Source of the DNA: a virus
Taxonomy: Duplodnaviria > Caudoviricetes
Virus record (IMG/VR): IMGVR_UViG_3300010413_000031
Coordinates: 1 to 61,999 of that record
Reading direction: 5' to 3' (one strand)
Length of the DNA stretch: 61,999 bases
The notes under the pieces were generated by a model that ran no database searches, was not told where the DNA came from, and saw only the letters and a list, made by a program, of their open reading frames with translations. This document shows positions 13,317 to 37,649 of this stretch, piece by piece (the stretch's first letter is position 1; each line of letters starts with the position of its first letter). The position numbers and the translations under genes were made by a program.

Positions 13317-13321
13317 AGTTT
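13293..13321 (+). promoter_or_regulatory. Sigma70-type promoter of the tRNA array
   Basis: TTGACA-17 bp-TAGTTT, 40 bp before the first tRNA. Confidence 0.75.
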
Positions 13322-18318: not shown

Positions 18319-18320
18319 CT

Positions 18321-21693: not shown

Positions 21694-21918
21694 ATGAACA
21701 GGATGGGCACCAGGACATACGCAGATGACGTGGCGTGGTTGGTTGAGACCTTCCATGACAGGCTGGAGTTGCTGGCTTCCGACGTGAGTCTGGATGATGG
21801 GAGGCTGTGGCTCACCCGGCGATGGTCAGAGCTTGGGCAGGGGGGTGGCACTATACGCGGCCGGGATATCATAGCGATCTTCGACTCATGGGAGAGCATA
21901 CGTAGGAAGAGCCCCTAG
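21694..21918 (+). CDS. Hypothetical protein
   Basis: AGGAGG RBS region. Confidence 0.5.
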   Translation: MNRMGTRTYADDVAWLVETFHDRLELLASDVSLDDGRLWLTRRWSELGQGGGTIRGRDIIAIFDSWESIRRKSP

Positions 21919-21942
21919 GGGGGTTGACCCGGAAGTTAACTT
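21917..21942 (+). promoter_or_regulatory. Short-spacer promoter element 1
   Basis: AGGGGGG TTGACC cggaagt TAACTT. Confidence 0.75.
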
Positions 21943-21969
21943 AGAGTGGACCCCAAAGGGAGGTGGCTT

Positions 21970-22167
21970 ATGCCCTTAGAGGCAAAACTTCTGTTGACTG
22001 GCGTGCTGGCTGTGGTGGTTGGCGTGCTGGCTGTAATACCAGTAGTCATGCTGGATGATTGTGGGCTGCACCGTACGGCAGAGGCCTTCGGTGCGATAGC
22101 GTGCGTCCTACTGTGTGTGGGCGCTGCACTCGTCGTAGTGGATGCGCTCATACTGATCTGGCGATAG
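21970..22167 (+). CDS. Small two-TM membrane protein
   Basis: GGAGGT RBS, hydrophobic. Confidence 0.55.
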   Translation: MPLEAKLLLTGVLAVVVGVLAVIPVVMLDDCGLHRTAEAFGAIACVLLCVGAALVVVDALILIWR

Positions 22168-22182
22168 GAGAGGGAGACGACT

Positions 22183-22362
22183 ATGACAGACGATGAGAAG
22201 CAGGAGCTGGTCGATCTGCTCCAGATAGTCAGGTCGGCCCTATCATCCAACGTGAAGGCATTGTGGTCGAAGCCCCAATTCCGTGACATGCAGAAGAAGA
22301 CGGCCCTGTATGCCATAGAGAAGATAGATGCCTACCTAAATGCATTGCGGGAGGGGGGTTGA
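22183..22362 (+). CDS. Hypothetical protein (59 aa)
   Basis: GGAG RBS, MTDDEKQELV... Confidence 0.5.
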   Translation: MTDDEKQELVDLLQIVRSALSSNVKALWSKPQFRDMQKKTALYAIEKIDAYLNALREGG

Positions 22363-22377
22363 CCGCCGGGTTAAATT
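22352..22377 (+). promoter_or_regulatory. Short-spacer promoter element 2
   Basis: AGGGGGG TTGACC gccgggt TAAATT. Confidence 0.75.
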
Positions 22378-22382
22378 AGAAT

Positions 22383-22693
22383 AGGCCGAGGGCGACCGAA
22401 GCTGCGGCTTGAGGGATTAGTAGCACTCGCTGCCCCACGCACGCCTTAGGTCTTGGTGGACGGTATCGACCACGGGACCTGAGGCCATGCAGTCCTCACC
22501 GTTATGAAGAGCCTGAGCGCCCACTCGCCATAGGCACCGCAGAGCCTAGAGTGACGGGGAGCAAACTGTTCCTCGACCAGGTTTGCGCCTGGTCTCAGAA
22601 CATTAAGGCGTGCATCACGCATTAGCACGCTGCGTGGGTGGAGAGAAGGAAGCTAGTAGTGGGAAACTGGCCGGTCGCCCGGCCTTTTCTTTT
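22383..22693 (+). ncRNA. Unclassified ~310-nt structured RNA / attenuator
   Basis: Gap without a credible ORF, complementary ends, many long helices, terminal hairpin + U-tract. Confidence 0.65.
22669..22693 (+). terminator. Intrinsic terminator
   Basis: GGCCGG-TCGC-CCGGCC-TTTTCTTTT. Confidence 0.7.
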
Positions 22694-22711
22694 GCAAGGG
22701 AGGAGGGCATT

Positions 22712-22942
22712 ATGATGGACGCAGGTGGCAGGGAGGTAGTGGTGGGCTCGATAGTGGAGGTACTGGTCGCGCGTAAGGCTTTGGTGCGGGACATTACGTA
22801 TGCCGATCAGGGCGAGCCCATCGCTACACTACAGTGGCAGGACAACCCACACGACACAGCGAGGGTACTATGGAACCACCAAAGGGCAAGGCTACTGTAT
22901 CAGTCAGGCAAGGACAGCGGCTGTGGGCAGCGCTCAAGATAG
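22712..22942 (+). CDS. Small SH3-like beta-barrel protein
   Basis: GGAGG RBS; DAGGREVVVGSIV pattern. Confidence 0.5.
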   Translation: MMDAGGREVVVGSIVEVLVARKALVRDITYADQGEPIATLQWQDNPHDTARVLWNHQRARLLYQSGKDSGCGQRSR

Positions 22943-23415
22943 CCCTTGAACGTGGCAGGAAGATCAAGCCCCAATTCCGCTGGGATACGCTTGGGGTGTA
23001 TGAGTCGCGTATCTTTCCCAAGGACAGCGAAACCATGGCCATACTGGTCTACTCTCCCACTAATGGCCACATCTTCATGAACGGGAGAGCTGCGGACGAG
23101 ATGCTTGCACAGGGTATGCTGATCCCGTGGGCTGTAGACATCCTGCTGCATGAGTTTGCTCATGCCATGGTAGCGGATGAGCACGGACCGAAAGTTCAGC
23201 CGCACGGAGTGGAGTGGCGGAGGCTGGCCCGAGAGCTGGGGTGTGTGCCCCAAGCCAGGGCCACGGATCATGAGCGGCTGCGCAGTTACAGCTGCATGAT
23301 AGTAGAGGAAGGAGGAAAGAAGAATGGCGTACGATTCACACTTAACGGCGATACGTCGGGGAAGAGCAAGCCGTCCGGGAAGAGCGTTGGTCGAGAAGAG
23401 ACTGGTTCCAGCTAA
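22834..23415 (+). CDS. SprT-like zinc metallopeptidase (start uncertain)
   Basis: LLHEFAH...HGVEWRRLARELG. Confidence 0.8.
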   Translation: MAGQPTRHSEGTMEPPKGKATVSVRQGQRLWAALKIALERGRKIKPQFRWDTLGVYESRIFPKDSETMAILVYSPTNGHIFMNGRAADEMLAQGMLIPWAVDILLHEFAHAMVADEHGPKVQPHGVEWRRLARELGCVPQARATDHERLRSYSCMIVEEGGKKNGVRFTLNGDTSGKSKPSGKSVGREETGSS

Positions 23416-23926
23416 GGACGGCTGGGCTCGCTTCGTGCTGGACTACGGAGCGGGGTTCGGAGACGACGCACAGGCCCACGGCTGGCATGCCTATGACCCT
23501 AACTTCAGCAACATCAGCGAGTTACCGACGTGGCCAGCCAAGTTCGATTACATTGTATGCATCTACGTTCTCTGTGTGTGTACGCGTGATGAGATCGTGG
23601 ATATCATGGGCGACATACTCAGGCGCCTTCGTCCGGGGGGCGTAGCTTACTTCGCAGTACGCAGGGATGGGGGTCGCCAGCTTGGCGTGATCGAACGAGC
23701 AGGTGGGAAGCGCACCTACCAGAGTGATGTATACCTGGATCTGCCGCGTGTGCTCTCCACCTACGGCTTTGACATCTACGAGTGGAGGAAGGATGCGGGA
23801 CGCACGAACGATATTCATGAAGAGTGTGCGCGAGCCGAAGCTAGTGCCCTCATCAAATTTGTGGGTACTGAAGGCTGTGGCATACAACCAGAAGATGTCG
23901 GGAAGGAAGAGGAAGACGATCAGTAA
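23324..23926 (+). CDS. Class I SAM-dependent methyltransferase
   Basis: VLDYGAGFG motif I, YDPNF, FDYIVCIYVL, LRPGG. Confidence 0.85.
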   Translation: MAYDSHLTAIRRGRASRPGRALVEKRLVPAKDGWARFVLDYGAGFGDDAQAHGWHAYDPNFSNISELPTWPAKFDYIVCIYVLCVCTRDEIVDIMGDILRRLRPGGVAYFAVRRDGGRQLGVIERAGGKRTYQSDVYLDLPRVLSTYGFDIYEWRKDAGRTNDIHEECARAEASALIKFVGTEGCGIQPEDVGKEEEDDQ

Positions 23927-24476
23927 GGGCAGATGGAAGGGCATGCCCATGTACAACCTCACTCTGGAAGAGCGAGCCACATGCCCGACTGACTGTCCAC
24001 AGTGGGAGGACTGTTATGGTAACAACATGCCATACGCAGGACGTTATCAAGCTGGGCCAGATCTTGAAGGGGCTATTGCCAGAGATGTCGAGCATCTCAG
24101 TGGGAAGCACCCGGACGGTTTCGTTGTCAGACTCCACGTTCTGGGAGATTTTTACAGCGTGGGCTATGTCAGACTGTGGCTCGGCCTTGTGGAACGATAC
24201 CCTGCTCTTCGTGTATACGGATTCACACACCGGCAGCATGACACAGGTATCGGTGCGGAAGTATCCAGGGGGCAGGGTCCTCATTTTCGTATACTCAGAT
24301 CAGATCCAACAGTACCCGATGATCCACTCCCTGCTGCATGGACTCTTAAAGACGGGGAAGTGGGGGCGAGGCCTGATTCGGTGCTTTGCCCATGGTATAG
24401 CGGCAAGACTGAGAGTTGCCTCACCTGCGGGCTCTGTTGGAACGGAAGCATCAACGTCAGCTTCCCCAGACACTAG
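23793..24476 (+). CDS. GP88-like Cys-rich (radical-SAM-like) protein
   Basis: TCPTDCP...CY, RLHVLGDFYS, C-terminal CP...CLTCGLC. Confidence 0.7.
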   Translation: MRDARTIFMKSVREPKLVPSSNLWVLKAVAYNQKMSGRKRKTISKGRWKGMPMYNLTLEERATCPTDCPQWEDCYGNNMPYAGRYQAGPDLEGAIARDVEHLSGKHPDGFVVRLHVLGDFYSVGYVRLWLGLVERYPALRVYGFTHRQHDTGIGAEVSRGQGPHFRILRSDPTVPDDPLPAAWTLKDGEVGARPDSVLCPWYSGKTESCLTCGLCWNGSINVSFPRH

Positions 24477-24484
24477 GAGGTAGC

Positions 24485-24724
24485 ATGAGCGTAGAAATCA
24501 CGGAGGCCCCCAAGCAGTATGGAAGATGGATAATCTGGGGCTGGGCCCTTTTCTCAGGGCCTCAGGCTTATGTCTTCGACACGCAGGCAGAGTTGGATGC
24601 CTTCCTGTTTGGGTGCGAAGAGGCAAATGGATGGATGGAGTATGCAGTCTTCGAGACGAAGGAGGAAGCGATCAACCACATGAAGGAGAGGGGAGCATAT
24701 GAACAAGAAGGAGCAGAGACATAG
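24485..24724 (+). CDS. Hypothetical protein
   Basis: AGGAGGT RBS. Confidence 0.55.
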   Translation: MSVEITEAPKQYGRWIIWGWALFSGPQAYVFDTQAELDAFLFGCEEANGWMEYAVFETKEEAINHMKERGAYEQEGAET

Positions 24725-24977
24725 GCTGGAGCAGATGGTGCTCACAGCCAACACGCTCAAGTGGCGGCTCAAGCAGTCTGCTCTGTGGGCAGAGGAACTG
24801 GAGACATTCCTGCGTGAGCTGTATGAACAAGAAGAGGAAGCACAGGAGTTGGCCGAGAGGATAGAGGGCAACTATGTCGAAGCAAAACCGAGGCCTGCTG
24901 GGGCTGGAGAAGAAGATGCGTCTAGGTCTGACCGTGCCAGACCTGCCTGCATTGGCAGCCAAAAGAGCGAAGGGTAA
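24699..24977 (+). CDS. Hypothetical coiled-coil protein
   Basis: RBS, overlaps neighbours. Confidence 0.5.
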   Translation: MNKKEQRHRLEQMVLTANTLKWRLKQSALWAEELETFLRELYEQEEEAQELAERIEGNYVEAKPRPAGAGEEDASRSDRARPACIGSQKSEG

Positions 24978-25218
24978 GAAGGCCTGGCGCTTCTACTGGC
25001 CGGACAACTACACACCCGTCAAGCGTGAGGGCTGGCAGTGGGTATCCCAGCCGTTGACCAGCGGCAGGGAACTCAAGCTTCCACGCTACATGCAGGTGGG
25101 CTCGCACGGATACACACGCGTGGTGCCCAACAGACTGGAGAAGGTCATGGGCTGGCTCACCAAGCATGGTTTCACGGTCACATGGGAGGACAAGAATCAT
25201 GGCAAAGAGCAGGACTGA
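24874..25218 (+). CDS. Hypothetical protein
   Basis: Overlapping ORF with RBS. Confidence 0.5.
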   Translation: MSKQNRGLLGLEKKMRLGLTVPDLPALAAKRAKGKKAWRFYWPDNYTPVKREGWQWVSQPLTSGRELKLPRYMQVGSHGYTRVVPNRLEKVMGWLTKHGFTVTWEDKNHGKEQD

Positions 25219-25381
25219 GGCTCAGATGGAGCTGTGGGAGGCGATGATCGAGTTCTATCGCTGGGGTGGAGGACAGGGTGAGATCCACCCATGGGTTGAG
25301 GGGGCGTACATCGACTACCGTAACCGGCGTGCAGCCGAGTCGAAGGAGAAGAGGGCCGATGAAAGCACCAGTTCCGAATGA
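25199..25381 (+). CDS. Hypothetical protein
   Basis: GGAGG RBS. Confidence 0.45.
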   Translation: MAKSRTEAQMELWEAMIEFYRWGGGQGEIHPWVEGAYIDYRNRRAAESKEKRADESTSSE

Positions 25382-25613
25382 AAGCCCCAATTCCGTGAGG
25401 CAAGGGAACCACGGCCCCAACCGGGCCAAGTCATTCGTGAGGGGCCGGAACAAGAATAAGCGGGCCGGGCGCAAGTATCCTAAGTTATTCAATTACAAGA
25501 GGATACGGCCCCGGTCCAGACATCTGCGACCAGGTATGAGGGTGCAGTCGCCCGACGGCAAGAAGTATGTCGTGGGTGTGCATGGTCAGCTCGTCAGGGT
25601 ATCGAGCTGGTGA
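25359..25613 (+). CDS. Small basic hypothetical protein
   Basis: RBS; Arg/Lys-rich. Confidence 0.5.
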   Translation: MKAPVPNESPNSVRQGNHGPNRAKSFVRGRNKNKRAGRKYPKLFNYKRIRPRSRHLRPGMRVQSPDGKKYVVGVHGQLVRVSSW

Positions 25614-25638
25614 GGGGGGTTGCGGAGCGGGTTAAATT
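25613..25638 (+). promoter_or_regulatory. Short-spacer promoter element 3
   Basis: AGGGGGG TTGCGG agcgggt TAAATT. Confidence 0.7.
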
Positions 25639-25684
25639 CAAACTGGTCGCGCCGCTCGAACCCCAATACAAACAGGAGGACATC

Positions 25685-26080
25685 ATGAGTGAGGAGAGGA
25701 CGCATACAGGACGGGTGAACCGAACGTGGAAGGAGGTCGTGCGTAGTGAAGCGAAGCTCGCCCGTATCCTACAGTGGAACAACCAAGACCTCAACAGGCA
25801 CCAGACGCAGATCACCAATCTGCAACGGAGAGTGGCCATGCTTGAGGCACGCCTTGATTACATACAGAGCAAGGCGGAGACGGTGACGCTGACAGAGAAG
25901 GCTAAGACAGCCCTATCGCAGCCGGTCGTGTTCATCACTGAGCATACCACCAGGAACCGTGGCGAGTGGGCCAAGCAAGTGAAGGGCGTGCTCGCAAGTC
26001 TGCTGCATGCATGGGACGAAGGTGATATCTACGCGTTCCTGGATGAGAACAACGGTGCGCTCAAGGATCTCCTGACGTAG
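25685..26080 (+). CDS. Hypothetical coiled-coil protein
   Basis: AGGAGG RBS after element 3. Confidence 0.6.
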   Translation: MSEERTHTGRVNRTWKEVVRSEAKLARILQWNNQDLNRHQTQITNLQRRVAMLEARLDYIQSKAETVTLTEKAKTALSQPVVFITEHTTRNRGEWAKQVKGVLASLLHAWDEGDIYAFLDENNGALKDLLT

Positions 26081-26090
26081 GTGTGAGCTG

Positions 26091-26116
26091 AGGGGGGTTG
26101 ACGAGCGGCGCAAATT
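26091..26116 (+). promoter_or_regulatory. Short-spacer promoter element 4
   Basis: AGGGGGG TTGACG agcggcg CAAATT. Confidence 0.75.
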
Positions 26117-26173
26117 GGAGTTGCGCCGGAAGCGGCACGCCACTCACCCATACCGAAGGGAGAGTAACATGTA

Positions 26174-26395
26174 ATGTCAGAGCTAGCTATACGGATCGCC
26201 ATACTCGCGTTCTTGCTGGCGATCTCGGGATTGTTGTTGTTGTTCACACACGTATTTGGCCCGCACCATCGGTCAGCCTCTGATGCATACTCCGAGCGCG
26301 GCTCGGCCAAGGCCTCTCATGCGTCTAACACCGAGCAGCCGGGCCACCAATCTTCTCCGCATGGGGCGGAGAGGGATGCATCCCAAAACCCATAA
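26174..26395 (+). CDS. Possible small membrane protein overlapping a structured RNA
   Basis: Hydrophobic N-terminus; preceded by ATG-TAA. Confidence 0.3.
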   Translation: MSELAIRIAILAFLLAISGLLLLFTHVFGPHHRSASDAYSERGSAKASHASNTEQPGHQSSPHGAERDASQNP

Positions 26396-26410
26396 GAGGG
26401 AGAGCACATC

Positions 26411-26944
26411 ATGAACGGACTCGACGCTTTCAAACAGAACGGCGGCAGCGCGCTGGCAGCCACTGACTTGATCAAGGTGTCGATCACCGGATCGCGCGGC
26501 GGCAAGGGCGCCGAGAAGATCAGCACCTACTTCGGTCCTGATGGGATCGAGCTAGATGCCGACTTCAATCCCAAGCCGCATGCCATGCCTCTCGATCTGA
26601 GTGGCGTGGCTGGTGCTGGCGGAGAAGCCAAGCAGCCCCCGGCCTTCCCTGAGGCGGAGTACAAGGCCGCCCTCAAGGAGAGCTTGGACAAGGCGCAGGC
26701 GATCCTCAGCGCCCACCAGCAGTCCTTGACGCAGTTCAAGGGTGGTGGCAACACCACTATCGAAGACGGCATCATCGATGCCTGTCTGCGGTACTGCTAC
26801 GACTACCTCAACTTCTCTGAGATCGACGACGCCACGAAGTTCGTCATCACTCGTAAGGACGTGGTCCTTGCGAAGGACTGGCGGAAGGTCAACGGCATCA
26901 ACCGGACCGTGTATGAGGTCAGGCTGGCCAGCCGGTTCGGTTAG
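26411..26944 (+). CDS. Candidate ubiquitin-like (beta-grasp) protein
   Basis: Ends ...VYEVRLASRFG-stop; residue pattern parallels ubiquitin; upstream of the ThiF gene. Confidence 0.4.
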   Translation: MNGLDAFKQNGGSALAATDLIKVSITGSRGGKGAEKISTYFGPDGIELDADFNPKPHAMPLDLSGVAGAGGEAKQPPAFPEAEYKAALKESLDKAQAILSAHQQSLTQFKGGGNTTIEDGIIDACLRYCYDYLNFSEIDDATKFVITRKDVVLAKDWRKVNGINRTVYEVRLASRFG

Positions 26945-27040
26945 TCGTAGCACAGGAGAAGGGTCAGCCTATGGCTTAGCGGTCAGAACAGGCCGATAGA
27001 TCGGATGTGAATCCGCTATGCTACGCATGTAACACCCGCT

Positions 27041-27074
27041 GGGGGCAGGCCCATGTCTGCCCCCTCTCTTTTTC
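27041..27074 (+). terminator. Intrinsic terminator
   Basis: GGGGGCAGGC-CCAT-GTCTGCCCCC-TCTCTTTTT. Confidence 0.8.
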
Positions 27075-27093
27075 ATACGCGCAGGAGGCAACA

Positions 27094-28737
27094 ATGAAGG
27101 TAGCTCAAGAGCCTAAGACGAAGGACGAACAGCAGGCGAAGAACCTGAGACTGAGCAGCTATATCTGCCCCATCTGCCAGAGCTACATGGCTAGGCAGCA
27201 CTACACGAAGCAGGGCACTCGCTATGAGATCGAGTACAATATGTGTGGCTGCCCGCCTGTCTATGGTCTGGTCTGGCGCAACGACAGTCAGCGACAGGGC
27301 AGGTACTACCACAACCGATGGCTGTGGATGCCTAACGGCAAGTCGCAGCTATACCATGGCCAGAGGTCGCCGGGTCGATGGATCAACGTGCATACCGATG
27401 AGCCCGTAGCCAAGCCAGACTGGATGCGATGGCTCAAGGTGCCCATCATCATTGACCGCTCGTCGGGGCGGGAGTTCAAGGCATTGGTGGAGATCGAAGG
27501 TGAACAGCGGCTTGTCGATTGCATCGGCACGAACAGGCCGGGGCTGTACCATGCCTTGTGTGTGAATCCGCCTGTAGACTACTGGGAAGGGCTGCCAGGT
27601 TTAAGTGCGAAGAGACTGGCCATGTATAAGGAAAAGCTGAGGGTTGTGAATAAGCATCTGGTGATCGTGCCCAAGGCACATCGCAAGAGGTATGCTCGCA
27701 CCCCTCATGCCAAGGGGGTCACCCTAACCACGATCCATACCAAGGATCAGGGTCGGGGCAAGTATGAGGAGTTCATCCCCCGCTGGTCAGTCAGGGAGTT
27801 CGGCATAGAGAAGTGGCAGTTCGTCTCCAAGGATGTGATAGAGGACGACGGCAAGAAGCGAGAGACGATCCTCAGATACAAGAAGCCGCACGAGAGCGAT
27901 GCCCTGATTGGTCAGCAGTCAGGCGCAAATGCATGGTGTCATACTCCAATACACCCCTGTGAGTGGGAGACTGACCCACGCCAAGGGTACAAGGCCGTCC
28001 GAGCACACCTTGATGACTACGGCTTCGAGCACTTGCACATAGATTGGATACAGCGCAGGTTCCTGTTCTACACGTCTGACGGGAACCGCAAGACTCAGGT
28101 AGGACAGATCAAGCACCCCGACCCTATGTGGGGCAGCGCCAAGAGAATCCTGTTGTGGGCCGACGAGTGCTGGGCCATGCAGCTCAGTGCTCAGGCAGAT
28201 AATGGGGTGTGGCGCATGGTCACGCCAGGTATGCTGTTCGTGGCTGATGACATGACATTCATCGCCACCTACCAGTGCCTGCGAATAGGTCAGAGCCTGA
28301 CTGAGTATCGAGCGGGCATCAATCTCTATGCCCCTCACGCGGCACCCATGTCATTGGCTGATTTCATCACTGGTCCGCTATCTGATTACTGGGACAGCAA
28401 GGGCAACATCAAGTTGATCCGGCCCCAGATTCAGATGGTCAGGGCCAAGGAAGTGGCTACGACTGGCGACCTACAGAAGGCGCTGCTGGATAAGATACAG
28501 AAGAAGTATGAGGGCTTCCTGCTCATACAGGGCTGGGTCATATCCTATGTCACCTGCCCTCTCTGCGGTTACCATTTGCACCACTTGGTCTATGACAAGG
28601 AGAAGCAGGCCATCAAGGAGTGCAGCAACTGTGGCAAGGCAGGTATCGAGCTGAGTATGGAGGCAACCACCCACTTCATTACATCAGAGGGGCCACTCAA
28701 CAAGGTGCTGTCCAAGAAAGGAGCCAAGATAGCATGA
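27094..28737 (+). CDS. Hypothetical 547 aa protein with terminal Zn ribbons
   Basis: CPIC...CGC at the N-terminus, CPLC...CSNC at the C-terminus; AGGAGG RBS. Confidence 0.65.
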   Translation: MKVAQEPKTKDEQQAKNLRLSSYICPICQSYMARQHYTKQGTRYEIEYNMCGCPPVYGLVWRNDSQRQGRYYHNRWLWMPNGKSQLYHGQRSPGRWINVHTDEPVAKPDWMRWLKVPIIIDRSSGREFKALVEIEGEQRLVDCIGTNRPGLYHALCVNPPVDYWEGLPGLSAKRLAMYKEKLRVVNKHLVIVPKAHRKRYARTPHAKGVTLTTIHTKDQGRGKYEEFIPRWSVREFGIEKWQFVSKDVIEDDGKKRETILRYKKPHESDALIGQQSGANAWCHTPIHPCEWETDPRQGYKAVRAHLDDYGFEHLHIDWIQRRFLFYTSDGNRKTQVGQIKHPDPMWGSAKRILLWADECWAMQLSAQADNGVWRMVTPGMLFVADDMTFIATYQCLRIGQSLTEYRAGINLYAPHAAPMSLADFITGPLSDYWDSKGNIKLIRPQIQMVRAKEVATTGDLQKALLDKIQKKYEGFLLIQGWVISYVTCPLCGYHLHHLVYDKEKQAIKECSNCGKAGIELSMEATTHFITSEGPLNKVLSKKGAKIA

Positions 28738-30795: not shown

Positions 30796-31009
30796 GCAAG
30801 CAGCGGGCCTTGCCATCCTATCGTTCTTGCTTGCATTATCATTCGTGGCGGCCATGTCAAGGGGTCGTAGACGCTAGGGGAGCTGCACTAGGAGAGGCAT
30901 AGAACCATGGGTGGGAGGTCATAGCCCCTCTTCTGTGCGGCAAGGCTCGGCTTTCAGGCTGTGGCTGAGCCCACCCTTGCATAACCAATTCAGCTAAGGA
31001 GAGAGCACC

Positions 31010-31372
31010 ATGTCTTCACAGTGGAACAAGTACACCGCCATCCAGGGTAAGAGCCCGTCCCAGATTCTGGAGCAGGTTCAGGGTCTGGCGGAGCAGGCGG
31101 AGTCACTCCTGCATGCACTGGCTGACGAGCCGGTCATGCGGATCGGACGCCCTGAGTGGCGTGCCGTCCTTGCCATCCGCGATCTGGGTGAGGCGATCAT
31201 CACGGCCTACATGAAAGGCATCTGGCCTGCCATGGGTCTGGATGAGGACGATCTCGAAGCCATCTCTATCCTCAACAGGGCGTTCGGAGAGATGGGCGTG
31301 CCTTGCAAGGCTCCGAGCTACAGTGAGGCGTGCAAGTGGGTGGATGGCCTGCTCGATGAGCTGTGTAACTAG
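31010..31372 (+). CDS. Hypothetical protein
   Basis: AAGGAG RBS. Confidence 0.6.
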   Translation: MSSQWNKYTAIQGKSPSQILEQVQGLAEQAESLLHALADEPVMRIGRPEWRAVLAIRDLGEAIITAYMKGIWPAMGLDEDDLEAISILNRAFGEMGVPCKAPSYSEACKWVDGLLDELCN

Positions 31373-31377
31373 CGGCT

Positions 31378-31403
31378 AGGGGGGTTGACACCCGGCTCAA
31401 ATT
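31378..31403 (+). promoter_or_regulatory. Short-spacer promoter element 5
   Basis: AGGGGGG TTGACA cccggct CAAATT. Confidence 0.75.
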
Positions 31404-31457
31404 GGGGACGGAGCAGTTGGCCGTCCCCTTTCACATCCTAACCGGAAGGAGCACCGT

Positions 31458-31772
31458 ATGTATTACCTATTGGTGGGGATAGCTGGTGCCTTCATTGGTG
31501 CGCTGGTTGTCTCATGGAACACGGGGAGCATGGTGAAGGACATCCTGCAAATGAGTATCAACGTCACCAAGCAGTACGAGACGTTGGTGACTGAGATGCT
31601 TAAGGCATGGAGACACACTCTCACCATGCTTGAAGGGCTTGGCCAAGAGATGGAAGAGCAGGCCGAGCAGATCGAGATGGCTGTGGCTGATCTATGGGAG
31701 GCGATACCCCAAGAGATTGAGGACGACGGACCCATCGGCATGGACGACACTCCGGTAGTGCGGGGAGCGTAA
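31458..31772 (+). CDS. Membrane-anchored hypothetical protein
   Basis: AAGGAG RBS, N-terminal TM. Confidence 0.55.
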   Translation: MYYLLVGIAGAFIGALVVSWNTGSMVKDILQMSINVTKQYETLVTEMLKAWRHTLTMLEGLGQEMEEQAEQIEMAVADLWEAIPQEIEDDGPIGMDDTPVVRGA

Positions 31773-31775
31773 GCT

Positions 31776-32006
31776 ATGAAGTGGCATAGACTTACGAGAG
31801 AGACAGGTCTGATAGAGTGGGTCTGTGAGCACGGAATCGGGCACCCGGACGCAGACAGCTGCGTTCATGTAGCCCGAGTCATGGCAGAACGCTATCCTGA
31901 CGGGGGACATACAGCAGACGTTTGGTCGGTGCATGGATGCGACGGATGCTGCTGTCGAGATGACTTCCCCGGCTACTTCAAAGGGAATGGCGTCGAGCCT
32001 GAATAG
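31776..32006 (+). CDS. Small Cys/His metal-binding protein
   Basis: CEHGIGHPD...HGCDGCC. Confidence 0.6.
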   Translation: MKWHRLTRETGLIEWVCEHGIGHPDADSCVHVARVMAERYPDGGHTADVWSVHGCDGCCCRDDFPGYFKGNGVEPE

Positions 32007-32016
32007 GAGGTGGACG

Positions 32017-32562
32017 TTGCGAGTAATATTCATAGCCGACCTGCACCTTGGACACAGGACGGTGATGCGCCACACAAGGAAAGTCAAGGGAGCCTATAGA
32101 GGGCAGGTTACAGACTTCATGGTTGACCCCGAAGATCCCAATGAAGTGAAGAGGCACGATGCATGGGTGATAGAGCAGTTGCATAGCATCAAGCCAGACA
32201 AGAGGACGCTGTGGTGGATGTTGGGGGACGTAGCCTTCACTCTTGAGGGATTGCACATGATCCGTAGCCTGCCCGGCAGAAAGAAGCTGGTGCTGGGCAA
32301 CCATGACAAGTTCCATTGGTCGGCGTATACCAAGGTGTTCGAGTCCTTGCACGGCACCGTCAAGCAATACGGTCTGTGGATCAGTCATGTGCCGGTGCAT
32401 GAGACAGAGCTGTACCGGGCACCCAACATTCACGGACATGCCCATCACAATCAACTGCGGGACGACCCACGATACCTGAACGTGTGCATTGAGTGGGTTA
32501 AGCGTCCCCTCTCACTGGAAGAGGTTAGGGAATACTTCAAGCAGGAGGCAGGACATGGGTAA
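32017..32562 (+). CDS. Calcineurin-like metallophosphoesterase
   Basis: ADLHLGH, LGDV, LGNHD, SHVP, NIHGHAH. Confidence 0.9.
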   Translation: MRVIFIADLHLGHRTVMRHTRKVKGAYRGQVTDFMVDPEDPNEVKRHDAWVIEQLHSIKPDKRTLWWMLGDVAFTLEGLHMIRSLPGRKKLVLGNHDKFHWSAYTKVFESLHGTVKQYGLWISHVPVHETELYRAPNIHGHAHHNQLRDDPRYLNVCIEWVKRPLSLEEVREYFKQEAGHG

Positions 32563-33004
32563 TCTAGGCATGGGGTACATGATAGAGATGTTGGGTGGCT
32601 ACAGGGATGCGCTCAAGGCATGGGAGAATGTGCATGGCAAGGAGATCACACGCCTGAGCATGAACCCTGACGCTAATGATGGAGACGGCGCCCTGTACAT
32701 AGAGGTTGAGGGTGGCGTAGCCATTGAAGTGATGGACAAGGCGCGGAGCTGCTGTGAGTCCAGGTATTTGGAGTGTGATGATGATCTGGGCGACTTCATC
32801 GGTGGCGACCTGCTCGACATAGAAGTGAGTGAGCGCCCCTCAACAGAGGATGAGGACGGACATGGCGTGGTCGAGTGTGCGTTCATGGTCGTACGCACAT
32901 CCATCGGTGCGTTCACTGTGTCCTCATACAACAGGCACAATGGGTACTACGGGGGGATATTCATAACCGTTCGGTCTGTCGAACCATACAAGGAGGACAA
33001 TTAG
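32555..33004 (+). CDS. Phage acidic hypothetical protein
   Basis: SCCESRYL...HNGYYGG pattern. Confidence 0.6.
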   Translation: MGNLGMGYMIEMLGGYRDALKAWENVHGKEITRLSMNPDANDGDGALYIEVEGGVAIEVMDKARSCCESRYLECDDDLGDFIGGDLLDIEVSERPSTEDEDGHGVVECAFMVVRTSIGAFTVSSYNRHNGYYGGIFITVRSVEPYKEDN

Positions 33005-33005
33005 C

Positions 33006-33365
33006 ATGGACATCTTGGAGGATGGAAAGACCGTGCAACAGTGTCGTGTCCATCAGCTCACCTTCGCTTGGTGGTGGTTGATAACCCTCAGGTGGAGCAA
33101 GAGTGGCTGGCGTGACTGGTGGTGCTTCAACCTCAGTCCACAGCTTGGGCTCAGCCTGACATTGGACAGGACAGGGATGAACGGAGATCGGCTTCAGGAC
33201 GGGGTGCAGAACATCGAGATCACTCTCAGTCTTGTGTTCGTGACCCTGTCCCTTGACTACTGCTATTATCCGCCCGCTCTCAGGGACAAGCAGATGCGGA
33301 TGTGGCAGGAGATGGGCTACACCGTCGTTGACAAGAAAGGGAGGCCGGTTGATGAGCAGGCGTAG
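33006..33365 (+). CDS. Hypothetical protein
   Basis: AGGAGG RBS. Confidence 0.5.
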   Translation: MDILEDGKTVQQCRVHQLTFAWWWLITLRWSKSGWRDWWCFNLSPQLGLSLTLDRTGMNGDRLQDGVQNIEITLSLVFVTLSLDYCYYPPALRDKQMRMWQEMGYTVVDKKGRPVDEQA

Positions 33366-33675
33366 CGTCATATGGCGCAAGAAGTTAGGGCATCGAGAGG
33401 AAGAGCCGGGCAGGAGTGTGAAGCACCATCGCAAGGGGAGTCAGTGTGGTGGTGATCTCGGCAAGCTGGAACAATGCATGCCCAGCAGGGTAGTCAAGTC
33501 AGACGGCAAGACTAGCTTCAAGCACTACACCTATGATCCTCAGACGGGGGAGATCACAGGTGTGACGCTGCACCGTGGACGTGAGAGCAGGGGCGTGGTT
33601 GGCACACGCCCCATGTCTGAGGGCAAGCGTCAGCGTGTGCTGTCCAAGCTGGGCAAGAAAGGTTGGCAAGCATGA
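33352..33675 (+). CDS. Basic hypothetical protein
   Basis: GGAGG RBS. Confidence 0.5.
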   Translation: MSRRSVIWRKKLGHREEEPGRSVKHHRKGSQCGGDLGKLEQCMPSRVVKSDGKTSFKHYTYDPQTGEITGVTLHRGRESRGVVGTRPMSEGKRQRVLSKLGKKGWQA

Positions 33676-33902
33676 ACGACGAGAAGCGGTATTATCACAG
33701 CATGATCGTGACGCAGATTGACAAGCCGCCGTCCAATTACACGAAGGTCAGGAACGTGAAGATCATAGATGGGCGCCTCTTCTTCGTGGTGGACGAGAAC
33801 AAGCGGTGCCCAACCTGCGGTCAGCTCCGTGAGCGGGAGCAGGAGCTGTCCTTCGCCCGCGACTGGATAAGTATCTTGCTAACCAACGCAGGGGGAGAAT
33901 AG
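33672..33902 (+). CDS. Hypothetical protein with CPTC motif
   Basis: ATGA coupling. Confidence 0.5.
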   Translation: MNDEKRYYHSMIVTQIDKPPSNYTKVRNVKIIDGRLFFVVDENKRCPTCGQLREREQELSFARDWISILLTNAGGE

Positions 33903-33903
33903 T

Positions 33904-34071
33904 ATGACTGAGTATGAGCATGTGTGCAGCAACTGCCTGCATACCGTCTATAACATGGACCCCCGCAAGCCCGGCACATGCTCTAAGTGCGGTAGCATGG
34001 ATGTTCGTCACTTTCCGGCAGGTAAGTGCCCCGTGCCGCCGGAAACCAGTACCTCAGGGGAGAGTGTATGA
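33904..34071 (+). CDS. Small Zn-ribbon protein (55 aa)
   Basis: CSNC...CSKC; GGAG RBS. Confidence 0.5.
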   Translation: MTEYEHVCSNCLHTVYNMDPRKPGTCSKCGSMDVRHFPAGKCPVPPETSTSGESV

Positions 34072-34121
34072 TTTCTGATGGACCCACGATTCGTCAAGCC
34101 TCACAACCCGGAGAGAATCAC

Positions 34122-34625
34122 ATGTGTAGACTAGTTGGTGTACTCGTTGCGGTAGTACTACTCGCCGCATGCTCGGAGACCCCCACTCAACAGCAGGAAG
34201 GGTTGTCTCTGATCGCTCCTTCCTTTGATTACATCACCTGTGATGGATCAGTTTTCACACAAGCAGAGTGCGACAAGATCGCCGACGCGATTTCCGACCT
34301 CTACGGCTCAGGAGAAGGCGACTGCATCTGGGCTGGAGCTACTGGGTACAACAGGTCGTGGTCGGAGACGAGCTACTTCTCGGAAGGAGGAGATGAAGGA
34401 GCTACGGGCAACTTCTCCTGCTGGGAGTCCGAAGAAGGTTGCATGTACGACCCAGAGGAATATCTAGGTCCTGGAGTCAGCTACATCAGTAGGGACTGGC
34501 ACTTGTGTGGGACTCCTCAATGTCAGAAAGATTTGCGGGGAGCAATCGCGCACAATGAGTGGGGACTCGCAGGAATGGACCTCGAATTTCAGCAGGAAGT
34601 GTTCGAGCTCTGCCGCGAAATCTGA
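34122..34625 (+). CDS. Cys-rich lipoprotein
   Basis: Signal peptide and lipobox LLAA-C (CSETPT). Confidence 0.7.
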   Translation: MCRLVGVLVAVVLLAACSETPTQQQEGLSLIAPSFDYITCDGSVFTQAECDKIADAISDLYGSGEGDCIWAGATGYNRSWSETSYFSEGGDEGATGNFSCWESEEGCMYDPEEYLGPGVSYISRDWHLCGTPQCQKDLRGAIAHNEWGLAGMDLEFQQEVFELCREI

Positions 34626-34879
34626 AGTGGCAGAAGGACAACTGTAGTTACAACGTAACAGTCGTAGGGTCCATCAGAAACATGCGAGAAGGCGAAGCCA
34701 CGCACTAGACATGAACCCTTCACTTATAGGAGGCACGTTGAAGGACAGTTGACCACATCTTGATTCAGCACCAATTCCGCGTGGCTCCCAGGCCCTGCGT
34801 GTGTATGTCATCCAATGGTGGCGGGCCATTGATGTATACGCGCAGGGCCGCCTTTATTTATACGCGCGTGTCTGGGGGT

Positions 34880-34905
34880 AGGGGGGTTGCGCTGTCGCTT
34901 AGATT
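34880..34905 (+). promoter_or_regulatory. Short-spacer promoter element 6
   Basis: AGGGGGG TTGCGC tgtcgct TAGATT. Confidence 0.7.
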
Positions 34906-34963
34906 AGATAAGCGCCGGGCCGACGGTCGGCCCCCACCACATACCACACACGGGAGAGAGCCA

Positions 34964-35275
34964 ATGGGACAGAAGGTTATCACACATGAGGCTGCCGCCA
35001 GAATCGCGCTGCTCGTAGGGCATATCCTCTGCGACTTGGCTGGCAATCGCTACCGGGGTTTCGGCATCCACTACACCACATGGCTGGAACAGTGCGGGGT
35101 CGTGCCCGATGAAGAGGGCGAGCTGCCCGAGATCGAGACGATACTCAGTCAGCTTGTCAAGCATTACCGCAACAAGAAGGGGTGCAGTAGTGACCCATGC
35201 GCTGTGTCATGGGTAGTTCGTGAGGCGTTCAAACAGTTGGGCCTAGACCTAGAAGGGGGTGAGCTACTGTGTTGA
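34964..35275 (+). CDS. Hypothetical protein
   Basis: GGGAGAG RBS after element 6. Confidence 0.55.
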   Translation: MGQKVITHEAAARIALLVGHILCDLAGNRYRGFGIHYTTWLEQCGVVPDEEGELPEIETILSQLVKHYRNKKGCSSDPCAVSWVVREAFKQLGLDLEGGELLC

Positions 35276-35484
35276 CATCGAGCCTAGTCACCAAGATGCG
35301 GGCGTTGGTGAGCCTGCATGAGGACGGCGGGCCAATGGCTGGGACGGAGCGTGCAGAGGCGGAGCTGGACCTCATGCATGAGATACACACCGAGCTGGAA
35401 GCGGTGCTTATTCCGTCCGGGCTGACGGCCCACCTGGTATTCACACGCGGCATCAAGAAGGGGGGTGAGAGCAAATGTCATTGA
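35269..35484 (+). CDS. Hypothetical protein
   Basis: Coupled ORF. Confidence 0.45.
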   Translation: MLTSSLVTKMRALVSLHEDGGPMAGTERAEAELDLMHEIHTELEAVLIPSGLTAHLVFTRGIKKGGESKCH

Positions 35485-35696
35485 TGTGGCATGACGGACC
35501 CACAGAGCGTGACATCGAGCGATTGAAGCTCATGCAGGACGCGCACAAGCTCCGCAAGGCATGGGTCGGGCACACACATCAGGAGCCGGGCTTGTTCGAG
35601 ACATGGGGTGAGGCTGCCCGCGTAGCTATCCCATGGGTTGCGCTAGGCATTGTGGTGACGGCCACGGTGCTAGGCATCTATGCATTGGTGAAGTAG
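35475..35696 (+). CDS. Small protein with C-terminal TM
   Basis: Hydrophobic C-terminus. Confidence 0.5.
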   Translation: MSLMWHDGPTERDIERLKLMQDAHKLRKAWVGHTHQEPGLFETWGEAARVAIPWVALGIVVTATVLGIYALVK

Positions 35697-35720
35697 GGGG
35701 GTTGACTGGCCGCCTAGATT
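35695..35720 (+). promoter_or_regulatory. Short-spacer promoter element 7
   Basis: AGGGGGG TTGACT ggccgcc TAGATT. Confidence 0.75.
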
Positions 35721-35765
35721 GGGACAGCGAGTCGAGCCAACCACCAACCCCTAGCAGGAGAGTGC

Positions 35766-35981
35766 ATGATGCGTACCATTGATCAGAATGCCCTACAGGA
35801 TGCGGACCACCGCAGGGCATACCGTGAGCTGGCCAAGGACATGGACGATCAACGCTTGTGTGATGTTGTCGGCAAGGTCGCCGCAAACCTTGGCCACCAA
35901 GGCAATACCGGATCGTCTGAGGCTGTGTATGAGTTGCTGCGGCGGTACGGCAAGCTCTATCACATGGAGGGCACCAAATGA
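35766..35981 (+). CDS. Hypothetical protein
   Basis: AGGAG RBS after element 7. Confidence 0.55.
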   Translation: MMRTIDQNALQDADHRRAYRELAKDMDDQRLCDVVGKVAANLGHQGNTGSSEAVYELLRRYGKLYHMEGTK

Positions 35982-36184
35982 TCCACCGCATACCTGAGCC
36001 TGAGCAAGGCAGCCCCGATCCCCGTGAATGGGTCGACCCCATGGAATTGGTGGACCGGATTGATGAGTGCCCGCAAGTGGCCATCTTGCAGGGGGTTAGC
36101 GACTCCTGCCAAAATGGCATGCCAAGAGAAGTGGGCACAAGGGAAGAGGACCAACCACATCACTTTAACCGGGGCCAGCTATGA
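35978..36184 (+). CDS. Hypothetical protein
   Basis: ATGA coupling, GGAGG RBS. Confidence 0.4.
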   Translation: MIHRIPEPEQGSPDPREWVDPMELVDRIDECPQVAILQGVSDSCQNGMPREVGTREEDQPHHFNRGQL

Positions 36185-36293
36185 TGTTGGCCCTCACATT
36201 CTTAGCGTTGCTCGTAATCGCTTCGGGCACCCATTCCGACTGGCGCTGACCCCATACATAGGCGCGCACGCGCACGCACGCGCGTATAGCGGC

Positions 36294-36319
36294 AGGGGGG
36301 TTGACAGCGCCACTACCTT
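36294..36319 (+). promoter_or_regulatory. Short-spacer promoter element 8
   Basis: AGGGGGG TTGACA gcgccac TACCTT. Confidence 0.75.
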
Positions 36320-36370
36320 GGAAAAGCGGCGACAGTGCCGCGACACTATCACCCATACACGGAGGCGATC

Positions 36371-37621: not shown

Positions 37622-37649
37622 ATAATACTCAGATTCGGGGGCTTGTCAA
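37622..37649 (-). promoter_or_regulatory. Sigma70-type promoter for the minus-strand PUR-like gene
   Basis: Minus strand TTGACA-16 bp-TATTAT (TATAAT at 19 bp). Confidence 0.6.

Follow-up and report, generated by a model that had tools for sequence, protein, structure and literature searches.

Eight copies of a bipartite element lie in front of leaders and genes in the phage genome studied here (a virus record of 61,999 bp, analysed over its full length and called the window below). We tentatively read them, at close to an even chance, as a promoter class peculiar to this phage family, in which host RNA polymerase with its primary sigma factor would read the -10 half and a putative phage protein would read an upstream box instead of the usual -35 recognition. 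The pattern A-G6-TTG-(AC|CG)-N8-YANNTT occurs exactly eight times in the window, on the gene strand every time, which bears out a sequence-only reading that had placed eight copies at gene boundaries:

21917..21949, + strand: element 1; box A-G6-TTGACC 21917-21928, TAACTT 21937-21942, predicted +1 G 21949; box overlaps the TAG stop of ORF 21703-21918; 21-nt leader to ATG 21970 of a 65-aa membrane-like ORF
22352..22384, + strand: element 2; box 22352-22363, TAAATT 22372-22377, predicted +1 G 22384; followed by a non-coding structured stretch
25613..25645, + strand: element 3; box with TTGCGG 25613-25624, TAAATT 25633-25638, predicted +1 G 25645; overlaps the TGA stop of ORF 25278-25613; 40-nt leader to ATG 25685
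26091..26123, + strand: element 4; box 26091-26102, CAAATT 26111-26116, predicted +1 G 26123; 51-nt leader to ATG 26174
31378..31410, + strand: element 5; box 31378-31389, CAAATT 31398-31403, predicted +1 G 31410; 48-nt leader to ATG 31458
34880..34912, + strand: element 6; box with TTGCGC 34880-34891, TAGATT 34900-34905, predicted +1 G 34912; 52-nt leader to ATG 34964
35695..35727, + strand: element 7; box 35695-35706, TAGATT 35715-35720, predicted +1 G 35727; overlaps the TAG stop of ORF 35475-35696; 39-nt leader to ATG 35766
36294..36326, + strand: element 8; box 36294-36305, TACCTT 36314-36319, predicted +1 G 36326; 45-nt leader to ATG 36371

The word GGGGGGTTG starts at 21918, 22353, 25614, 26092, 31379, 34881, 35696 and 36295 on the + strand (n = 8) and nowhere on the - strand, and a backwards control returned none; a first-order Markov model predicts 0.55 occurrences of the 9-mer on each strand, and 0.14 once the leading A is included (10-mer). 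When the eight 27-mers were turned into a weight matrix, they scored 28.3-39.5 bits, while the runner-up on either strand of the genome reached 6.1. With one mismatch allowed the pattern was no commoner than in shuffled sequence (21 matches vs. a shuffle mean of 22.6), so that only the exact copies stand out. These exact, one-stranded copies, far from background sites, argue for a promoter class, as do the fixed spacing in 8/8 and the succession of leader (21-52 nt), Shine-Dalgarno site and ATG after seven of them. Element 2 is followed instead by ~310 nt that hold no ORF and are predicted to be structured; the earlier description of a leader with ribosome-binding site or a structured RNA after each copy thus holds.

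In canonical sigma-70-type promoters a spacer of 16-18 (up to 19) nt separates the upstream -35 hexamer from the -10, and transcription starts at a purine ~7 nt past the -10. Here the distance from TTGMSN to the downstream hexamer is 7 nt in all eight elements, and both this spacing and the hexamers reported before (TAACTT, TAAATT twice, CAAATT twice, TAGATT twice and TACCTT) were recovered without exception. The words that stand 17 nt past TTGMSN (TGGACC, TAGGCC, CTGGTC, TTGCGC, ACGGAG, AAGCGC, CAGCGA and AAGCGG) include none that is -10-like (0/8), again as the sequence-only reading had it. The downstream hexamer, on the other hand, does have the -10 signature: A at position 2 and T at position 6 in 8/8, with T (five) or C (three) at position 1. 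Two further features had escaped the earlier reading, namely a G at the second base 3' of the hexamer (7/8) and a G at the seventh (8/8). Such A/T hexamer positions, followed by G two and seven bases on, are in the register of a sigma-70-family -10, discriminator and +1. The elements therefore resemble promoters whose -10 is genuine, rather than ordinary -35/-10 pairs, as had been supposed, and the predicted start lies 7 nt past the hexamer. YANNTT and the two G residues would serve as an ordinary -10, discriminator and start site, and this downstream half would be read by host core polymerase carrying the primary sigma factor.

The same genome offers a comparison for the -10 half, since normal promoters had been reported at 13293, 37649 (- strand), 49070 and 50509. 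All four are present as matches, each with a perfect TTGACA as -35 and each intergenic:

13285..13321, + strand: ordinary promoter before the 25-tRNA array; TTGACA, 17-nt spacer, TAGTTT-GG
37622..37649, - strand: top sigma-70-type match of the genome (11/12), before gene 37219-37554 (P0120); TTGACA, 16 nt, TATTAT
49070..49098, + strand: ordinary promoter; TTGACA, 17 nt, TAGGCT
50509..50538, + strand: ordinary promoter before the major capsid gene; TTGACA, 18 nt, CACATT-GG

What did not stand is their enrichment: genome-wide, sigma-70-like matches were not above shuffles (9 vs. 9.2, 8 vs. 5.6 and 5 vs. 7.0). The -10 style of the capsid-gene promoter is identical to that of the eight elements, and the sharing of this style by TAGTTT-GG and CACATT-GG at 17-18 nt spacing argues for a -10 read by host sigma, where "host-type" is judged by the phage's own few canonical sites, themselves not statistically enriched.

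The upstream half is a box of 12 bp (A-G6-TTG-AC/CG, -32 to -21) that would stand in for the -35 hexamer. Its core is TTGAC in six copies and TTGCG in two, and the sixth position of TTGMSN is free (C, C, G, G, A, C, T, A). The motif search in related genomes suggested by the sequence-only reading found the layout also in two distant relatives whose capsid is ~57% identical, G006 and G007; there 6 or 8 nt separate TTGCGG from a following TAnnTT-nG, and the sites lie on the gene strand in the same variable gene region. The layout occurs five times in G006 and three times in G007, never on the other strand (shuffle means 0.27 and 0.03), counts that were not blind, as the family-wide pattern first had an 8-nt gap and was relaxed to 7-9 nt once the relatives had been seen. 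Seven of these eight sites fall inside the syntenic variable region, with leaders of 23-72 nt, and all eight have the TTGCG core; the flank 5' of TTG varies from phage to phage, as expected for a co-evolving phage factor. Because the short-spacer layout extends to distant relatives, a phage factor probably replaces normal -35 recognition at the eight elements. An unusual host sigma, which had also been proposed, found no support: in a weak test, no contig of a species-representative genome collection or of IMG/VR carried the exact motif twice.

The spacer is constant within each phage and differs among the three (6, 7 or 8 nt); "exactly one helical turn short" is therefore true of this genome and not of its relatives. 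The related idea that TTGAC is a displaced -35 hexamer is weakened by the same variable spacer, by TTGCG in 2/8 copies and in all relatives, and by the free sixth position. This bears directly on an improbable alternative in which host sigma region 4 itself, off the flap-tip helix, would sit on TTGAC/TTGCG one turn closer, kept in place by a phage protein on the adjacent upstream flank. Such an arrangement would be an initiation-time version of lambda Q loading, with the G run as the flank, and is the same as the "remodelled holoenzyme" of the earlier reading. TTGAC in 6/8 copies speaks for it, and so does the tRNA-array promoter, which has the same G-run-TTGAC module at a normal 17-nt spacer: its near-box GAGGGGGTTGAC (10/12 positions) includes the TTGACA, the same bases forming a terminator-like hairpin. 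There is also a precedent: in the Q-lambda loading complex, as described in bioRxiv 10.1101/2022.03.25.485794, sigma region 4 has come off the flap-tip helix and occupies a -35-like site immediately 5' of region 2, itself on a -10-like element, and Q keeps it there. With its QBE, -35-like site and sigma-dependent pause element, that complex resembles our elements in having a phage-protein site directly 5' of a -35-like word abnormally near a -10-like word; however, it assembles on an early-elongation complex that has paused, at one late promoter, and not for initiation at eight sites, no Q-type protein appeared in family scans here, and the core here is often TTGCG. A TTGCG core in two copies here and 8/8 sites in the relatives, the freedom of the sixth position vs. 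the perfect TTGACA of the four ordinary promoters, and a spacer that changes by phage all tell against region 4 as the reader. Moreover, PMC11156646 describes sigma domains as anchored at fixed polymerase sites, and the short spacers it covers, those of sigma-B type promoters, are only ~3 bp shorter and explained there by double-stranded -10 reading. Like ours, those promoters have their two boxes closer than for the primary sigma; in our elements, by contrast, the distance is ~10 bp shorter and the -10 looks like the primary-sigma type.

The preferred reading thus assigns the box to a putative phage-encoded DNA-binding protein, which would either recruit polymerase or substitute for the sigma region 4 contact, much as MotA and AsiA of T4 act at middle promoters. 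Activator sites right next to the -10, where a -35 would otherwise be, are familiar from the P1 late promoters with Lpa and from the pho boxes of PhoB. These share with our elements a conserved site closely 5' of a normal -10 without a -35, although sequences and proteins are unrelated. T4 middle promoters are similar in several respects: a phage box for the -35, a stringent host-type -10, many copies before early/middle genes, and retention of host polymerase. According to PMC2988021, the MotA box replaces the -35 beside a sigma-70 -10 and is centred on -30, with 12 +/- 1 bp between it and the -10. In our elements the box stops 8 bp short of the -10, has its centre near -26.5 and is unrelated in sequence, and models for MotA and AsiA (PF09114 and PF09010) gave no match at E <= 10 in six frames. 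The elements combine a host-type -10 with a phage box for the -35 as T4 does, without its box geometry or its MotA/AsiA pair. The nearer box counts against our explanation, as do the empty MotA, AsiA and helix-turn-helix searches, the last of which yielded no regulator above any family threshold.

No recognisable RNA polymerase, sigma factor or known activator emerged when 73, 34 and 50 proteins were scanned together with six-frame translations; the absence of polymerase and sigma agrees with the earlier statement that neither a polymerase nor a complete sigma gene is visible, and counts for the preferred reading. A phage RNA polymerase that reads the whole element, possibly from within a 2172-aa virion-type protein, so that the -10/-35 likeness would be coincidental, is most improbable. 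Phages that carry virion polymerases have giant ORFs, and the giant ORF at 103-6621 that encodes this protein is retained in all relatives; the strong conservation of the box would also suit such an enzyme. Yet Pfam and PHROG scans of the 73 proteins found no polymerase family, and catalytic-type motifs, written as regular expressions, were absent from the giant ORF and four other large orphans. PF00940 (T7-type polymerase) had no match either, but it was equally silent on control genomes, so this negative carries no weight. Promoters of single-subunit (T7-like) polymerases show ~20 bp of continuous conservation through +1. The elements are instead bipartite, with eight free positions between the halves.

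Two proteins came forward as possible readers of the box:

8901..9686, + strand: P0122, candidate reader; basic, Trp-rich, 261-aa orphan, retained in G006 and G007
47798..48868, + strand: P0279, weak candidate reader; N-terminal helix-turn-helix fused to a calcineurin-like phosphoesterase, between portal and scaffold genes

P0279 owes its place to the sole match of the sigma region 4 models (r4 and r4_2), which is sub-threshold (15.6 and 14.8 bits) and lies at its N-terminus. P0122, an unproven candidate, has 92 relatives in a 1.84-billion-protein library and belongs to no known family. It could also be the highly diverged phage sigma-like protein of an unlikely alternative, in which a single factor, with a geometry of its own, recognises both halves; the part that reads the -10 would be similar to sigma region 2, and a second domain would bind -32 to -21. 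Several observations are consistent with this: i) the fifth hexamer position is T in 8/8 elements and 8/8 sites of the relatives, stricter than in the phage's ordinary promoters (2/5); ii) the spacer is constant within a phage and differs between phages; iii) P0122 is found in all three phages; and iv) phiEco32, a podovirus with SU10-type capsid and in that respect alike, has a sigma that PMC12276001 describes as only distantly homologous to sigma factors. At the phiEco32 middle and late promoters this diverged sigma (gp36) acts with a helper (gp79) that displaces host sigma region 4, and the same source gives gp36 promoters a -10 word of their own, with its centre at -11.5, and places their -35 contacts between about -37 and -34. 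But no relative of gp36 was found in the phage here: gp36 compared with all ORFs of the three phages gave nothing at E <= 10, and the P0122 profile matched it with a probability of 0.13%. Neither did model searches reveal a phage-encoded sigma-70-family protein with regions 2 and 4, as Sigma70_r2 had no match in six frames and 57 members of the P0122 family no sigma-model match at E <= 0.1. The -10 style, finally, is the same as in the ordinary promoters.

The -10 half is complete by itself, which opens a further alternative of low probability: host holoenzyme alone would use the strong -10 and discriminator with no -35, and the box would be a repressor or shut-off operator or a stoperator-like block. 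The box covers the place where a repressor would exclude polymerase, and the site is asymmetric, in one orientation and at gene boundaries. Stoperators of cluster A mycobacteriophages, which are temperate, are likewise asymmetric repressor sites in one orientation to transcription within short intergenic gaps. They differ in having no fixed-distance -10 and start site, and no integrase or repressor family was found here, either in the 73 proteins or in relaxed scans. The constant distance from box to -10 (8/8) and its retention in relatives fit joint reading of the two halves better, and the perfect -35 kept by the ordinary promoters suggests that the host does use a -35.

It is very unlikely that the elements are not promoters and act instead as sigma-dependent pause/antiterminator-loading, RNA processing, packaging or recombination signals. 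A factor site followed by a -35-like and a -10-like word does resemble a Q loading site. Such sites are found once per late operon, 10-25 nt past the start point of a promoter. The eight elements stand at coding-region ends, every one of them followed by a leader and gene of its own, and no promoter-like match was listed immediately 5' of them, where Q loading requires one. RNAalifold found 0 common pairs among them and single folds were unlike one another, so that the lack of a common hairpin supports the promoter class, and the invariant G falls at start-site distance.

Element 2 is predicted to drive a non-coding RNA of its own, and terminator-like hairpins close this stretch and probably the unit behind element 4:

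22384..22692, + strand: predicted non-coding RNA of ~310 nt, driven by element 2 and ending at a hairpin plus T run
22669-22684, + strand: terminator-like hairpin plus T run, predicted 3' end of that RNA
27041..27064, + strand: terminator-like hairpin of 10 pairs (8 G-C) with T-rich tail

The fold of 22384-22692 has an MFE of -139 kcal/mol (z -3.55), a stability that 0/100 shuffles attained; Rfam gave no family at gathering score for this stretch, with a best E of 0.03. The hairpin at 27041-27064 is likely the end of the element 4 unit (genes 26174-26395 and 26411-26944). Contigs from four RNA libraries of two studies fall inside 26133-27039 and have their ends at 27017-27039. They do not define RNA ends, and the earliest start, at 26133, is equally compatible with transcription from 26123 or from up to 10 nt later; their position between element 4 and the hairpin is a weak hint of a transcribed unit.

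The word GGGGGGTTG was found exactly eight times in the window, all on the plus strand and nowhere else in it, against an expectation of ~0.55 per strand. Aligned without gaps, the eight copies read A-G6-TTG-(AC/CG)-N8-YANNTT (AC in six copies; CG in two, which carry TTGCG instead of TTGAC), and both this shared layout and the hexamers (TAACTT, two TAAATT, two CAAATT, two TAGATT and TACCTT) are those of the sequence-only reading. Two further bases were conserved: a G at the second base after the hexamer (in seven of the eight) and a G at the seventh (in all). With the latter taken as +1, the leading A falls at -32, followed by the G run (-31 to -26), TTGMS (-25 to -21) and the hexamer (-12 to -7); the sixth position of the TTGMSN word is free.

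Elements, listed by box start, strand, base at the sixth TTGMSN position and predicted +1
21917, plus strand: element 1, sixth base C, +1 at 21949
22352, plus strand: element 2, sixth base C, +1 at 22384
25613, plus strand: element 3, sixth base G, +1 at 25645
26091, plus strand: element 4, sixth base G, +1 at 26123
31378, plus strand: element 5, sixth base A, +1 at 31410
34880, plus strand: element 6, sixth base C, +1 at 34912
35695, plus strand: element 7, sixth base T, +1 at 35727
36294, plus strand: element 8, sixth base A, +1 at 36326

On a weight matrix the eight copies reached 28-39 bits and the next-best genomic site 6. When one mismatch was permitted, the 9-mer gave 21 matches against 22.6 in shuffled sequence, i.e., no enrichment; thus the set consists of eight strict copies and is not a diffuse family.

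The elements sit at gene boundaries: in three of the eight the box runs into the stop codon of the ORF before it, and the remaining boxes lie 5-254 nt past such a codon. At 21916-21918, 25611-25613 and 35694-35696 the first box bases themselves make up the TAG or TGA stop, so that coding and signal overlap. As previously described, each element precedes either a leader with a ribosome-binding site or a structured RNA: a Shine-Dalgarno site and an ATG follow 21-52 nt after the predicted start in seven cases, opening ORFs of 65-131 codons (several membrane-like), and an ORF-free stretch of ~310 nt (22384-22692) follows element 2. This stretch folded more stably than did any of 100 shuffles (z = -3.55) and ends in a terminator-like G+C hairpin and T run; no Rfam family fits it, and blastn found no counterpart in two distant relatives, the IMG/VR records G006 and G007. 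Across the eight regions no common secondary structure emerged (zero pairs by RNAalifold, with disagreeing single folds), which argues against hairpin-type promoters such as those of N4 and against RNA-level signals. We consider it very probable that the eight elements are promoters.

The segment 21800-31700 is contained in DNA runs of several studies and partly in four metatranscriptome runs from two studies. Between 20500 and 38500, 13 contigs from the four RNA libraries were found (among them 25726-26073, 26133-27039 in all four runs, 27856-28159 and 30902-31328), leaving the majority of the region uncovered and spanning none of the eight elements. The best-covered block corresponds to the unit predicted from element 4 (+1 at 26123) to a hairpin at 27041-27064; this is a weak hint in favor of that unit, as such contigs reveal neither strand, starts, ends nor absence and RNA libraries may contain DNA.

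The presence of ordinary promoters with spacers of 16-18 nt in the same genome was borne out at four intergenic sites, each with a perfect TTGACA followed by a TAnnnT-type hexamer:

13285-13321, plus strand: before the tRNA array, TAGTTT-GG
Before the gene at 37219-37554, minus strand: TATTAT
49070, plus strand: TAGGCT
Before the capsid gene, plus strand: CACATT-GG

Sigma-70-like matches overall were no commoner than in shuffles, and it is by quality and position that these four stand out. Two of them have the YANNTT-GG style seen in the eight elements. The -10 half would be of the ordinary host type: A at position 2, T at position 6, then G after two bases and a predicted purine start after seven make up the register expected for a primary sigma (regions 2 and 1.2). 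Its style recalls the Flavobacterium consensus TTG-N17-23-TANNTTTG, as quoted in a Chlorobaculum preprint (10.1101/172254). On the other hand, Bacteroidetes are described as devoid of Shine-Dalgarno sites (PMC6847099), whereas this phage has strong ones.

The promoter of the tRNA array also contains GAGGGGGTTGAC, which agrees with the box at 10 of 12 positions, yet keeps a normal 17-nt spacer, and a box-reading factor might act there too; its bases double as a terminator-like hairpin. Of all sigma-70-type promoter matches in the genome, the best (37590-37650), with its -10 inside a long inverted repeat of operator-like appearance, stands before the minus-strand gene 37219-37554. The 111-aa product of this gene, P0120, has a C-terminal CxxC...CxxC motif and may resemble Pur-alpha-type nucleic-acid binders. 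A homologue of P0120 was present in G006 and not found in G007, and the ESM Atlas yielded no entry for P0120 itself.

An alignment of 36 capsid sequences (A1) led to 17 IMG/VR loci, three of them in long records: G006 (60,132 bp, 50% G+C), G007 (67,410 bp, 61% G+C, with a 123-bp end overlap) and G008, whose matches were identical to those of G007 in every search. The capsids are 57% identical to that of the window, and synteny extends over the structural, lysis, recombination and polymerase modules. The region from the polymerase to the homologue of 38177-38488, where the eight elements lie in the window, has no protein in common. In this variable region G006 carries gtACAGnGT-TTGCGG-N6-TAnnTT-(T/G)G at 28224, 31552, 32839 and 33300 (with two extra layout matches at 15024, within the polymerase gene, and at 53463), and G007 carries TTGCGG-N8-TACCTT or TAACTT at 53534, 62283 and 62675 (reverse-complement coordinates), with eight consecutive G ahead of the first. 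Leaders of 23-72 nt and ORFs follow the four variable-region sites of G006 and all three of G007. The pattern TTG(AC|CG)-N7-9-TAnnTTnG occurred on the gene strand five times in the window, five times in G006 and three times in G007 (shuffle means 0.13, 0.27 and 0.03) and never on the opposite strand, a count that is supportive and not blind, the gap having been widened from 8 to 7-9 once the relatives were known. Since the relatives carry such TTGCGG-spacer-TAnnTT sites on the gene strand, the layout is a family trait, with a core TTG(C/A)(G/C), a phage-specific flank and a spacer that is fixed within each phage (6, 7 or 8 nt) and differs between phages. Thus the layout proposed for the window does extend to related genomes, but with the core TTGCGG, spacers of 6 and 8 nt and other flanks.

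Capsid protein matches indicated phages with capsids 70-91% identical. Closer genomes were not reached: no relative came out of IMG/VR when its records were scanned with single proteins (capsid, portal and polymerase); a metagenome scan with a three-sequence polymerase alignment was dominated by unrelated family-A polymerases (best family match 40% identical, on a 2.3-kb contig); and megablast with 21000-37000 gave no match among phage records. Cultured phages are all distant (best capsid match 23% identity; terminase matches ~25%). The exact motif was found in 13 stretches of IMG/VR, one match each (five of those records held only 1-2 G6TTG words), and in 102 stretches of species-representative genomes, again with one match each among the 80 listed. 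Its occurrence outside the window is therefore at chance level, and it retrieved no close relative. No host regulon was seen in these species-representative genomes, which, as a weak test, lends no support to the unusual host sigma offered earlier as a possible reader.

The upstream box had been taken for a -35 element lying one helical turn too close to the -10. The 7-nt spacer stands in the window, but TTGCG cores in two of the eight copies, the free sixth position as against the TTGACA of the ordinary promoters, and spacers of 6-8 nt across the phages indicate that the box is not simply a displaced -35, the relatives being decisive here. The same features weaken the bolder proposal that sigma region 4 itself docks one turn closer to the -10, for which a structural precedent is described in the Q-lambda loading complex; furthermore, sigma domains are otherwise described as sitting at fixed anchor points, with known short spacers only ~3 bp shorter (PMC11156646). 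A new initiation geometry is improbable in our view; in it, a -35-reading module would dock one turn nearer the -10, at a point between those where regions 3 and 4 normally sit. Host sigma region 4, released from the flap-tip helix, could be that module, or else a substitute of phage origin (such as one of two candidates described below, P0279 with its sigma-4-like helix-turn-helix or the orphan P0122), and spacing (6, 7 or 8 nt) and flank would be tuned in each phage to its own factor. Sigma-54 and other alternative-sigma layouts were set aside, as no second conserved word was visible by eye at the needed distance, and archaeal TATA/BRE signals were rejected in view of the CwlK-like peptidoglycan peptidase endolysin, the strong Shine-Dalgarno sites and the near-perfect bacterial promoters.

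The best-supported reading, to which we would give slightly less than an even chance, is a scheme like that of T4 middle promoters: host core with primary sigma would read the -10, discriminator and start, and a phage protein would bind the box at -32 to -21 and replace -35 recognition. T4 shows the same principle with a different box geometry, its middle promoter box being centered at -30, 12 +/- 1 bp from the -10 (PMC2988021). A cryptic phage sigma, a phage polymerase, host-only promoters with an operator box, and non-promoter roles carry lower weight.

As to the reader, the earlier statement that no RNA polymerase or full sigma gene is recognizable was upheld by family scans and six-frame model searches. 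Neither was found by Pfam and PHROGs on 73 proteins, nor with relaxed settings (Pfam on 34 proteins, PHROGs on 40, NCBIfam on 50); six-frame searches with Sigma70_r2, MotA, AsiA and NusG models found nothing, and a T7-type polymerase model had no match, its control being silent as well. Catalytic patterns were missing from the giant ORF and four other large orphans, and PDB sequence searches of five large orphans were negative. Both sigma region 4 models matched one place, below their cut-offs (15.6 and 14.8 bits): residues ~12-38 of P0279 (47798-48868), in which a helix-turn-helix is joined to a calcineurin-like phosphoesterase. The G006 homologue is 43% identical with the same N-terminus. 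Since the region 4 models matched nothing in G006 or G007 and BLAST found no homologue in G007, P0279 would be a weak candidate. With the portal gene on one side of its gene and the scaffold gene on the other, one may ask whether P0279 is packaged.

The other candidate, P0122 (8901-9686), is a basic, tryptophan-rich orphan in all three phages, and the only non-structural three-phage orphan not assigned by its neighbors to recombination or packaging. A library of 1.84 billion proteins yielded 92 members of its family (E <= 0.001); the family has no Pfam match in 57 of 57 members, no PDB relative by profile search, none in cultured phages and no likeness to phiEco32 gp36; an alignment scan added no record to the three already in the set. 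Winged-helix neighbors of the Atlas model of a homologue were dismissed as meaningless (pLDDT 0.42, TM <= 0.30). Two more proteins were rejected: i) P0119 (9674-10249) as a WhiB (E 0.16), its gene being within the recombination module and its cysteine pattern presumably closer to a Cas4-like nuclease; ii) P0128 (12752-13264), kept in the family with its gene beside those of Sak4 and an exonuclease, a position that suggests a single-strand-binding protein.

Phages without a polymerase of their own must redirect the host enzyme, and T4 MotA/AsiA, phiEco32 gp36/gp79, the Thermus phage factors and lambda Q each informed the placement of sigma domains on polymerase. The kind of signal is already known, namely a phage-specific promoter that keeps the host -10 and has its own box for the -35. 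The layout itself was undescribed in the papers that literature searches returned; new relative to these are the geometry, the sequence, the family-wide tunable spacing and the lack of a recognizable factor. In this family of uncultured sediment and soil phages, accessory genes that evolve fast would bear as their mark a box lying nearer the -10 than known region 4 placements allow. The identity of the reader would reveal either a sigma-like fold or an appropriation mechanism that is new, as well as a compact orthogonal promoter and factor pair, and the motif is already usable to annotate transcription units in the family.

The window, an entire IMG/VR virus record of 61,999 bp, is rated 98% complete, with nearly all genes on the plus strand. 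Family scans identified a P22-like portal, SU10-type adaptor and capsid, large terminase, CwlK-like endolysin, PD-(D/E)XK exonuclease, Sak4, two-ORF family-A DNA polymerase and AAA helicase-like protein. Because proteins of this phage also occur on contigs up to 67,342 bp, ~5 kb may be absent. For a podovirus-like phage of 62 kb the tRNA array is large (25 genes in 1.9 kb, 13362-15301, among them tRNA-Ile with anticodon TAT). The polymerase (16594-20037, with an N-terminal UDG-like domain) is split in two by a 225-aa orphan ORF (18321-18998), and its two parts adjoin each other in G006. The giant ORF (103-6621, 2172 aa), which belongs to no known family, is ~25% identical in all relatives (2572 aa in G006, 2831 aa in G007), and only its C-terminal part matched PHROGs, in families of giant phage proteins to which no function is assigned.

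Another word that recurs, CAATTCC, for the most part as (A)AGC(C/A)C-CAATTCC-G and in some copies within ORFs, lies in the same 15-kb region on the plus strand (21678, 22276, 22972, 25388, 30549, 34772 and 36730; none elsewhere on that strand) and at 36049 on the minus strand. An alternating purine-pyrimidine (CG/CA)n tract (36262-36290) directly precedes element 8, and a similar tract stands at the corresponding end of the variable region of G006 (~33230-33262). G006 has its own repeat, YKTTACAC, unrelated to the promoter layout, with 12 gene-strand copies in its variable region within 18217-33983, two tandem pairs among them and several after hairpins. Beyond the possible source runs, 94-96% of the words sampled from 21800-31700 are also contained in DNA runs from four studies (soil, marine sediment and metagenome by label, and unlabelled).
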